DNA from: Nitrospirota bacterium
GTDB taxonomy: Bacteria > Nitrospirota > Nitrospiria > SBBL01 > SBBA01
DNA length: 57,139 nt
NCBI GenBank assembly: GCA_038059935.1
Contig: JBBTIN010000043.1
Span: 1 to 57,139 of the forward strand
Reading direction: 5' to 3'
Part shown: piece after piece, positions 36,637 through 38,781 of the stretch
How positions within the stretch are numbered: position 1 is the stretch's first letter
Layout of the letters: each line of letters opens with the position of its first letter
The notes under the pieces: model-generated
Told to the model about the DNA's origin: nothing
The model's input: only the letters and a program-made list of their open reading frames with translations
Databases searched by the model: none
Position numbers and translations under genes: made by a program

Positions 36637-38781
36637 CTAGGCGTTAAATACGACCTGTTGGTAAGGGTCCCATGCCGTTGCATCGGGCGTTACCGTAACT
36701 CCAGCTTGATCCGTGATGACCAGTTGTGTCCTCACGAACCAATGCATCATGATTTGTCCTTGTTGTTCAGGATTAAAGGCATCAAAATTTTCGTTTTGTG
36801 CAATGAGTGCCGCGTCACCACCCTCACCCATTATAGAACCTAAGGCTGTATAATTGTTAACGCTTCCATCATGCCGGTCTTGAATATTCAGTGAATTTGT
36901 TGTGTTGACATTTCCAGAATTGTATCCATAATTATATCCACTCCCTGCGACCTGTGCCATAATCGCTTCCGCCATATAGATACCGCCGATTTCCCTGCTC
37001 TGCCAGACATGGGTCAGCTCATGGATTAGCGTGGGCCGATCAATGTCGCCATCATCCATATCAAAGTTGATCAAGTTGGAGGTGACAAACGCCCTTGAAG
37101 TGGGGTTGCCTGTAAAGAAGTCCTGTATGCCAAAAATAATTTCATTCAGTGGATCTTCGGTTGAAAGGAAAATTAAATCATAATCAAGGCTGTTTCCAAA
37201 AACCGTTTGGGCATCGGCAATCTCTTCGGAACGCAGGGATCGGAAAGAGCCTAACAAATTGAATAAGGCGGCAATCACGTTGGCAAGCGCAGCGGCACTA
37301 ACGCGCAACACCGCCTCAAGAATATCCAACACGGCTTGTCCAATTTCCAACGCCGCTTCGATGACTTCATCCAGAAATTCTTCGGCCGTCTCAATAATTA
37401 CGGCTTCAAATAAATCATCAAGAGTCTGCCCGATTTCCTGTAAACCTTGTAAAAATGTATTGAGCGCATTTGCCGGGTTTGTAACCACCTCAACCAGCAT
37501 TTGCCCAATGGTTGCCCCGACATCGAGCGCGGCCCGAATAATCTCTCCGCATATTTCAATCGTCTGGTCTATCGCCCACCCAATAATTCCCGCAATGGCC
37601 ATTCCCGCATCCAATAGTCCTCGCGTAAAATCAAAAATAAACTGAACACCGCTTGTCGTTAAAAAATTATACACATAATAAATGGAATTGCCGATGGTGA
37701 CAGTCACCTCTCCAATCACTTTCCAGACAGCAGCTCCAGCAGTGAGCGCCCACTCATAGAGCGTAATTAAATCCTCTCCGATCTCCTCCCATGCCCGCAC
37801 AATGGCCTCAAACACCATGTCTGTTTGTTTGGCCATCCAGTCTAAGACTTCCAACAAACTTGCTTTGGCATAACGAAGGGTCTGCAATGTTCTTCTCCAT
37901 AATTCACTGGTCGCGTTCTCCACCTGTGTCAATATAAAATCTAACACGTCACCAATCGGTCCAAGATTTCTAATAATTCCGTTTATGAATCTTCGGAATA
38001 CCCAGTAGGATTCGGAGACCACGGTTTCCAAAAGTTCGGCAATCGCAAAACCGACGGCAAAAGCCGCCTCAATAAATGTTGAAACCGCGTTGTATGTCCA
38101 GTCAAACACGGCTCCTACAAATTCAATTAATGCGGTTCCGGCCTCTTTTAACGCAGCCAACAAATTACCTATTTGCTCTGCGGTCCAAGAAACAACTTCT
38201 TCAAACAGATCCACAATCGCGGCGCCAGCAGTGGTAATGGCATCAATGATGGCATCAATGGATTCTAAAATGGCATCCACGCCGTCTTCTATCGTGTCGA
38301 CAACCCACTCTGCGGCATCGCCAAGCGCGTCCACTAATATTTCGGCCGTATCCGAAGGTTTGACATTATGTTTTCGTAGCACTTTTCCGGCAAGTTGTAA
38401 CCAAACAGCAACATCATTGACCGTGCCGCCGGAGTCGAGCAGGTCTTTCATACAGGCACGCACATTTTTCTTTTTCAGGCCGGACATGTTTTGTATCACG
38501 AATAAGGAACCTGCCCTTCCTGTTCCTTCAATGATCGCGCTAAATACTTTTTTTCTGGAAGCGGGTACCATCTTTACGGTCTCATCAAAAAGTTGTTTTC
38601 CTTCGGTAATAAATTGTTTTTTTGTTTTTTGAGTCGCGAGCAGTCCACGCGTATAGTGATAAGCGGCCTTGGGTGATTGCCGGTTGGCCAGATTAAGATA
38701 TTGGCCGATTTGATTCCCGGATAGTTTCATTTTCCTAATTTGAGCACCCATTGATTCAACGTCGTTGGTTAGAGAAATCAA
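36637..38781 (-). CDS. large helical-repeat protein with a C-terminal HExxH zincin-like domain
   Basis: 714-aa ORF. Residues about 150-520 are Ala/Ile/Leu/Val/Glu/Asp-rich predicted helices with recurring Trp. The C-terminal region has RPTLIHELTHVWQ (HExxH). No N-terminal signal peptide. The start is ambiguous: TTG 38781 or ATG 38751. Confidence 0.7.
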   Translation of the reverse strand: MISLTNDVESMGAQIRKMKLSGNQIGQYLNLANRQSPKAAYHYTRGLLATQKTKKQFITEGKQLFDETVKMVPASRKKVFSAIIEGTGRAGSLFVIQNMSGLKKKNVRACMKDLLDSGGTVNDVAVWLQLAGKVLRKHNVKPSDTAEILVDALGDAAEWVVDTIEDGVDAILESIDAIIDAITTAGAAIVDLFEEVVSWTAEQIGNLLAALKEAGTALIEFVGAVFDWTYNAVSTFIEAAFAVGFAIAELLETVVSESYWVFRRFINGIIRNLGPIGDVLDFILTQVENATSELWRRTLQTLRYAKASLLEVLDWMAKQTDMVFEAIVRAWEEIGEDLITLYEWALTAGAAVWKVIGEVTVTIGNSIYYVYNFLTTSGVQFIFDFTRGLLDAGMAIAGIIGWAIDQTIEICGEIIRAALDVGATIGQMLVEVVTNPANALNTFLQGLQEIGQTLDDLFEAVIIETAEEFLDEVIEAALEIGQAVLDILEAVLRVSAAALANVIAALFNLLGSFRSLRSEEIADAQTVFGNSLDYDLIFLSTEDPLNEIIFGIQDFFTGNPTSRAFVTSNLINFDMDDGDIDRPTLIHELTHVWQSREIGGIYMAEAIMAQVAGSGYNYGYNSGNVNTTNSLNIQDRHDGSVNNYTALGSIMGEGGDAALIAQNENFDAFNPEQQGQIMMHWFVRTQLVITDQAGVTVTPDATAWDPYQQVVFNA

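Follow-up and report, generated by a model that had tools for sequence, protein, structure and literature searches.

What is a zinc-protease motif doing at the end of a long helical protein, directly ahead of a second protease gene, in the genome of a Nitrospirota bacterium? The question is raised by a gene on contig JBBTIN010000043.1 of GenBank assembly GCA_038059935.1, of which positions 1 to 57,139 were analysed as a whole and are referred to here as the window. A preliminary description of this DNA had noted, at 36637–38781, a 714-codon reading frame with a helical-repeat centre and a C-terminal HELTHVWQ motif. Here we find that this gene, termed the target, is real and encodes a protein of three parts, a basic head, a long amphipathic stalk and a predicted gluzincin domain, and that it is followed by a gene for a predicted cysteine peptidase, termed the partner. 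Our reading, to which we give an even chance of being right in its composite form, is that the locus represents an operon for two proteases, conserved and horizontally scattered, whose products form a cytoplasmic module that is probably a maturation pair and is possibly linked to lipids. As far as a literature search shows, the catalytic domains are known and their architecture, their pairing and the operon are undescribed; a search for the gene combination returned nothing relevant, and no source holds an informative name for the family.

The open reading frame (ORF) claimed in the preliminary description is uninterrupted at exactly 36637–38781; the strand, which had not been stated, is the minus strand, on which the 714 codons open with TTG. 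A plus-strand reading of the same coordinates was considered and rejected, since that frame is riddled with stop codons. The target start is most likely the first ATG, at 38751, to which the open frame is continuous from the TTG at 38781 further upstream. This gives a coding sequence at 36637–38751 (minus strand) for a protein of 704 residues, beginning MGAQIRK and ending at a TAG stop codon at 36637–36639, and a public protein collection contains this same 704-aa protein (P0001). We recovered 43 homologues at 33–100% identity, and because these include full-length matches at 33–81% identity, the ORF lies far beyond what chance would produce. The gene for the three-part protein is real.

The 5' end of the gene departs from that of its relatives. 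Homologue N-termini lie about 20 residues further upstream and read MKxxKKxKxxIDFSxKD in the family alignment, and the sequence that matches this true N-terminus is found in the window as a mini-ORF of 18 codons in another frame, MKCLNPTKQTIDFSNQRR followed by a stop (38756–38812, minus strand). As the family N-terminus is encoded in a separate frame, the window gene must carry a 1-nt frameshift near 38770 relative to the family. Contigs from two separate groundwater-metagenome runs span this site with zero indels; given two independent assemblies, the frameshift looks real rather than a one-off assembly error. The window gene probably restarts at the ATG at 38751 after the frameshift.

That the protein ends in a zincin, as the preliminary description had proposed, is borne out by profile comparison. 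The last 200 residues contain RAFVTSNLINFDMDD...RPTLIHELTHVWQ, and residues 501–704 (36640–37251, minus strand) form a gluzincin domain homologous to VgrG2b C-ter/Tpe1 and related to DUF4157/eCIS_core. The sole match among PDB sequences was 6H56, the VgrG2b effector domain, which was found with the single target sequence by phmmer at E=6.8e-5 and with a 16-sequence family profile at E=1.7e-10. The alignment extends over about 130 residues, taking in the FGxSxDY lead-in, IHE(L/M)THVWQ and NxEQQG, and it places H577, E578, H581 and E662 of the target opposite H935, E936, H939 and E983 of VgrG2b. In VgrG2b, H935/E936/H939 make up the catalytic triad, with E983 serving as third zinc ligand, and the C-terminal domain is classed as a thermolysin-like gluzincin (PMC6899460). 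In the target, we predict that HELTH (residues 577–581; 37009–37023, minus strand) supplies two zinc-binding histidines, H577 and H581, and the catalytic glutamate, E578, and that Glu662 in FNPEQQGQ (36766–36768, minus strand) is the third ligand. Across the family alignment, HExxH and the EQQG glutamate vary little or not at all, and the assignment of the C-terminus as a gluzincin with a complete predicted zinc site is supported at the sequence level. The closer label first put forward, a DUF4157-type domain, stood in part. The superfamily is a related one, and 15 of 16 family members match eCIS_core/DUF4157 (PF13699) weakly, with a best E of 3e-4, but the target itself reaches 14.3 bits (E 0.048), under the gathering cut-off of 22. 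Whole-protein scans of the target against Pfam, NCBIfam and PADLOC gave nothing informative over threshold.

Two further observations concern this domain. Four homologues (P0028, P0030, P0034 and P0036) carry an extra insert of about 75 aa within it, at approximately columns 960–1040 of the alignment, which sits between GYNYGY and the third zinc ligand and by its sequence pattern (...GTIDYxTGxLxIxF...) has a beta-rich look. An invariant arginine at the boundary between stalk and zincin, in (S/T)YR, was considered as a cleavage site and rejected as unspecific, given that VgrG2b shares this arginine within its own domain.

The remainder of the protein consists of head and stalk. An AlphaFold2 model, computed from a 27-sequence alignment and using 714-aa numbering, shows an N-terminal bundle of about eight helices at residues 1–137 (pLDDT, the predicted local distance difference test, 85–95), a continuously helical middle from about 140 to 510, and a mixed alpha/beta region from about 510 to 714, whose helix/strand core has a pLDDT of 70–95. 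The N-terminal domain, or head (residues 1–127; 38371–38751, minus strand), is some 130 aa long with about eight helices, is specific to the family, and is basic, with a net charge of +16. The central stalk (residues 128–500; 37252–38370, minus strand) is an acidic, amphipathic and all-helical stretch of 372 aa with a net charge of −42. The helical centre rich in Ala, Ile, Leu, Val, Glu and Asp with recurrent tryptophan, as first described, is evident in its composition (A 14%, L 11%, I 11%, V 9.5%, E 9%, D 6%), in its 10 tryptophans and in the all-helix model. A Kyte–Doolittle scan of the target, which is not a dedicated signal-peptide predictor, found no N-terminal hydrophobic segment, in agreement with the absence of a signal peptide noted earlier. 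Only two 19-residue windows reach a value of 1.6, within the borderline hydrophobic helices at residues 222–245 and 477–503.

The stalk is strongly periodic. Its mean helical hydrophobic moment is 1.45, compared with 0.65 ± 0.05 in shuffled sequences, and its hydropathy autocorrelation is 0.39, 0.35 and 0.44 at lags of 11, 18 and 29 residues (shuffle standard deviation 0.05), with a further peak at lag 58 in longer homologues; judged by these figures, the periodicity is of the hendecad type. In 37 proteins with just 47–81% identity, head and zincin are separated by exactly 372 aa. Other length classes lie at about 513 and 633 aa, the latter equal to 372 + 9×29, and the stalks of divergent members measure about 190 to 420 aa. 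The length classes are consistent with growth by 29-residue units together with selection on length, which is constant within clades.

The partner gene (35725–36624, minus strand) encodes a 299-aa predicted cysteine peptidase of clan CD, of the gingipain or C25 type. It begins 12 nt past the stop codon of the target and has GAGG upstream of its start. It matches Pfam Peptidase_C25 at 26.2 bits, over a cut-off of 23, and its AlphaFold model (pLDDT 92.7) was matched by Foldseek to gingipain R (RgpB) over its whole length, with a template-modelling score of 0.72–0.73 and E of 9e-9; behind it in the fold comparison come CHAT, separase and Craspase proteases. The predicted catalytic residues are His169 in GHGR (36112–36123, minus strand), which aligns with the GHG of gingipain, and Cys203 in FSCS (36013–36024, minus strand), which aligns with the region of the gingipain catalytic cysteine. 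Both are strictly conserved, in 61 of 61 partners drawn from separate loci and in all 32 of the 32 database homologues, and a cluster of invariant arginines surrounds the histidine. The N-terminus of the partner forms a beta-strand of the modelled fold, and is not a signal-like segment. From this conservation, the partner looks like an active protease rather than an immunity protein. A terminator-like feature lies about 40 nt inside its coding sequence, where a GC-rich hairpin, TGGGGAGACGCTCTCTCCCCA, is followed by a T-run, TATTTCTTTT (36563–36583, minus strand); it could lower expression of the partner relative to the target.

The suggestion that the downstream gene is a partner of the target was supported by comparison with relatives. 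We counted 60 species-representative genome loci bearing a long family member, and found the partner directly downstream of the target homologue in 58 of them, spanning at least eight phyla. Only L011 and L042 are without it, and the contig of L042 stops at the gene. Stop and start codons of the pair overlap in several relatives, which, together with the 12-nt spacing in the window, suggests translational coupling. Two divergent subfamily members with shorter stalks also retain the partner. On this genomic evidence the downstream gene is an obligate partner of the target. The domain architecture is likewise fixed across the family, as judged by profile searches: among proteins of at least 500 aa found with the head (N-domain) profile, 55 of 61 bear the same C-terminal zincin domain, and 53 of those 55 keep HExxH. 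An earlier idea that the protein might resemble a polymorphic toxin was not upheld, given this constant C-terminal domain and a downstream gene that encodes an apparently active protease and is not of the immunity type.

The family is rare, the N-domain profile retrieving just 126 cluster representatives among 1.84 billion, and widely dispersed. Carriers occur in Bacteroidota, Gemmatimonadota, Pseudomonadota, Acidobacteriota, Nitrospirota, Krumholzibacteriota and others, as well as in Actinomycetota (Cellulomonas, Kocuria and Gaiellaceae); there are cultured carriers in Lacinutrix, Terrimonas, Cellulomonas and Kocuria, and a further one is Kriegella aquimaris DSM 19886. Of these, Kriegella aquimaris DSM 19886 has the pair alone, and Terrimonas sp. 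NS-102, Lacinutrix gracilariae and Cellulomonas edaphi have a five-gene form of the locus. The genes that flank the module in relatives vary from locus to locus and are mainly housekeeping genes. A divergent short-stalk relative of 521 aa, P0158 (positions 8001–9566 of L080/L081), has no partner and lies in a region resembling an integrative and conjugative element (ICE), where its neighbours are TraG, TraI, a resolvase, a methyltransferase, a 1679-aa NACHT/STAND protein and a BglII-type restriction–modification pair.

In most relatives the pair is part of a longer operon. Clustering of flanking ORFs showed genes for an acyl carrier protein (ACP), a ketosynthase (KS) and a 131-aa KS fragment directly downstream of the pair in 43 of the 60 loci; L017 (9792–11599), L013, L033 and L048 are examples of such five-gene loci. 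The ketosynthase has 381 aa and is of the KAS I/II type, and its best solved relatives, 9S5H and 6KXD, are structures of the KS–CLF (chain-length factor), polyene-type KS kind. The 131-aa protein corresponds by alignment to the stretch of KS right before the active-site cysteine and is without that cysteine, and in this respect it is like a miniature chain-length factor.

How might such a set of proteins work together? We propose that the two proteases would act on one another as a maturation or activation pair. There is precedent for clan CD proteases activating zinc-protease toxins, for example the action of fragipain on the Bacteroides fragilis toxin (BFT). Head and stalk, as a tether, spacer or pro-region, would keep the zincin in position or in check. 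In lineages with ACP and KS genes, the stalk probably acts at the surface of a lipid or membrane, or becomes acylated; we suggest this because most relatives add ACP, KS and the KS fragment, and because the 11-residue amphipathic periodicity is like that of apolipoproteins. The window has the minimal, two-gene form of the module.

It is important to note that several results weigh against this proposal. That either protease processes the other, and in which direction, is something we purely infer. The long helical middle of the target is modelled with a pLDDT below 50, and a Foldseek search of the PDB with the full-length model was uninformative: it gave no match at E<0.1, its output was dominated by generic helical proteins, and 6H56 was not among the top 50. 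The 5' frameshift may mean that the window copy is N-terminally shortened or decaying, and a search of sequencing runs found the target sequence in DNA metagenome runs only. As for the link to lipids, it is not universal, given that the window and 16 other loci consist of the two-gene core without ACP and KS. Faint matches to Phasin_2, ApoLp-III, Baculo_PEP and CsmB are probably compositional, as are the tape-measure matches described below.

A more specific version of the lipid link can be formulated, which we put forward tentatively and think rather doubtful: the pair would lie at the centre of a lipid-coupled protease system that has yet to be described. An acyl or polyene chain, produced by a dedicated ketosynthase/ACP unit, would anchor or load the stalk of 29-residue repeats; the stalk, in the manner of a molecular ruler, would set the distance of the gluzincin from the head, and the gingipain-like partner would switch the zincin on. 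If true, Gram-negative and Gram-positive bacteria alike would possess a new kind of protease machine, tethered to lipid and calibrated in length, or else a toxin that acylates itself and attacks membranes.

There are other possible explanations for these results. The target may be an effector, antibacterial or anti-eukaryotic, that is delivered in the manner of Tpe1/VgrG2b by a type VI secretion system (T6SS), by an extracellular contractile injection system (eCIS) or by lysis, with the partner activating it or protecting the producer. The sole solved homologue of the zincin is indeed a T6SS periplasmic toxin (PMC6899460), DUF4157 marks eCIS-associated toxins (PMC8213781, PMC11297309), and the patchy distribution of the family has the appearance of horizontal transfer. 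However, no genes for T6SS, eCIS or phage tails (sheath, tube, baseplate) are present in the 57-kb window, nor are delivery-system genes present in the contexts of the 10 relatives inspected; the protein has no N-terminal hydrophobic signal; and the partner, cytoplasmic and with a catalytic dyad, is unlike the envelope-targeted Tpi immunity proteins. Furthermore, Actinomycetota such as Cellulomonas and Kocuria are among the carriers, whereas the periplasm is where VgrG2b acts, and DUF4157 is N-terminal in eCIS toxins (PMC8213781) while the zincin here is C-terminal. We therefore consider a delivered effector unlikely. We are similarly sceptical that the target is first of all a lipid- or membrane-surface protein, its stalk coating or inserting into the surface like a phasin, an apolipoprotein or a pore-forming toxin, with the proteases as accessories. 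Such a role would suit the 11-mer amphipathic periodicity with its very high hydrophobic moment, the two borderline hydrophobic helices at 222–245 and 477–503, the dedicated ACP and KS genes of 43 of the 60 relatives, and the homologue at L017, which scores 44 bits against Phasin_2 (PF09361), over a cut-off of 24.9. No Phasin_2 match was found for the window protein in the Pfam scan, and a control with reversed sequences showed that matches of this sort, between helical repeats and hidden Markov models (HMMs), reflect composition and are unreliable. Moreover, with its net charge of −42 the stalk is poorly suited to bind anionic bacterial membranes, the window is without the ACP and KS genes, and two conserved active sites would be left unexplained.

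The same reversed-sequence control bears on the possibility that the target is a structural component of a phage tail or tailocin, akin to a tape measure. The target matched nine tape-measure or tail PHROG families, with E down to 2e-8, and two longer homologues matched PHROGs with E down to 9e-16; two homologues are called 'phage-related protein' by the Joint Genome Institute (JGI), and the stalk falls into discrete length classes. Reversed sequences, however, match the same PHROGs as well or better (E 2e-9 to 2e-18), and we rejected these matches as homology in favour of shared composition and periodicity. Searches by tblastn of 50,697 phage genomes and 72,556 plasmids gave zero matches, IMG/VR viral contigs contain no relative of the target, and the inspected contexts hold no tail genes. 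A phasin or tape measure, which the preliminary description had named as an outcome that would overturn it, is thus not established, and the tape-measure explanation is in our view largely refuted and very improbable. More room, though not much, is left for an anti-phage or abortive-infection protease pair, in which stalk or head would sense an invader and the proteases would kill or arrest the cell. The fold neighbours of the partner include the defence proteases SAVED-CHAT and Craspase TPR-CHAT, the distribution across phyla is patchy, the divergent partner-less relative in the ICE-like region stands beside NACHT and restriction–modification genes, and one relative adjoins HipA toxin–antitoxin genes. 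Yet PADLOC yields only marginal ZorA matches for the target (E 0.008 and 0.022; 11–13 bits) and none for the partner, the contexts are mostly housekeeping (in the window, proC, flagella and nitrogen regulation), and a tight linkage to ACP and KS is atypical of defence systems. We regard a role in defence as quite unlikely, and retain as our preferred reading the cytoplasmic two-protease module.

The surroundings of the module in the window are those of chromosomal DNA from a flagellated Gram-negative bacterium, with mreBC, PBP2, rodA, ccm genes, flgF-L, proC, BBP2 porins, amtB-glnK-glnD, kdtA and acs. The two genes are bracketed by a direct repeat of about 200 bp. Copy A (38876–39067) fills the intergenic region between proC and the target, and copy B (35468–35678) sits close behind the partner, before the next operon begins; the mean column identity of the two is 83% overall, flanks and a 20-bp indel included. 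Copy A ends in a sigma-70-like promoter site, TTGACA-16-TATCGT, found by a promoter scan, and copy B ends in a sigma-54-like TGGCAT-N5-TCGC, spotted by eye only. The arrangement suggests that the module was inserted, or that its promoter was duplicated.

Other features of the window were observed in passing. Behind copy B (33760–35413, minus strand) lie a Cys-rich 138-aa ORF (34997–35413) and a 101-aa ORF (34735–35040), neither of which has a family match, and a class-3 lipase (33760–34599, minus strand) with weak similarity to the secreted effector lipases XopAP and Rlip; none of these three ORFs is conserved beside the module in other genomes. At 40157–47190, two tandem BBP2 (OmpL-like) porin genes stand directly upstream of amtB-glnK-glnD, an arrangement suggestive of a cluster for nitrogen scavenging that has outer-membrane channels of its own. 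A LuxC-type acyl-CoA reductase is encoded at 138–1430, and an asparagine synthase, an AMP-binding enzyme, an NAD-synthase-like protein and an unannotated 363-aa ORF at 11278–17150; the genes of these two regions may be tied to lipid or amide biosynthesis.

The significance of the locus lies in the setting that it gives to a known catalytic domain. Zincins of the DUF4157/VgrG2b type are widespread markers of contractile-injection toxins, whose substrates and role are still unknown (PMC6899460, PMC8213781, PMC11297309). Here such a domain is found with a head, a ruler-like stalk, a partner of the gingipain fold and usually a private KS/ACP set, and with no injection machinery, in a family that spans diderm and monoderm phyla. 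As cultured carriers exist, the module would be a tractable system in which to study the substrates and the control of these zincins, and in the partner the gingipain family would gain a minimal member that is cytoplasmic. For annotators, the results carry the caveat that tape-measure and phasin HMM matches on hendecad-periodic helical proteins can arise from composition alone.

Comparison with known systems brings out both likenesses and differences. The target shares with VgrG2b C-ter/Tpe1, T6SS effectors of the MA(E) gluzincin group that mostly carry the DUF4157 annotation, the FGxSxDY, IHE(L/M)THVWQ and NxEQQG motifs, the last with the third zinc ligand. Unlike VgrG2b, it has no fusion to a VgrG spike and no T6SS linkage, its zincin is placed behind a 500-aa head-and-stalk, it has an additional stretch of about 40 aa (about 115 aa in some homologues) between HExxH and the third ligand, and its family extends to Gram-positive phyla. 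Where Tpe1 has a small envelope-targeted immunity gene (Tpi), the target locus has none and is followed by the gene for the 299-aa gingipain-fold peptidase. An HExxHVxQ-type motif is common to the target and PF13699 (DUF4157/eCIS_core), but the target falls below the cut-off for that family, lies in no eCIS locus and carries the domain at its C-terminus. The likeness of the stalk to tape measures, apolipoproteins and phasins, which consists of a long helical region, a hydrophobic periodicity of 11/18/29 and recurrent aromatics, is compositional only. The partner is RgpB-like in its two-subdomain alpha/beta fold, its dyad of a GHG histidine and an SC cysteine, and its C25 match; it differs from gingipain in its length of 299 aa, its identity of about 11%, its occurrence outside Bacteroidota and its lack of a signal-like N-terminus, and its length and fold coverage leave no room for the gingipain pro-domain, the immunoglobulin-like domain or the C-terminal domain of the type IX secretion system. 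A parallel to the pair as a whole is that of fragipain and BFT, where likewise a cysteine protease of clan CD has a genetic association with a zincin, which points to maturation by proteolysis. Fragipain and BFT are secreted proteins whose genes do not form a coupled operon, and the target pair, which shares no sequence relationship with them, joins these two kinds of protease in a predicted cytoplasmic module of its own.

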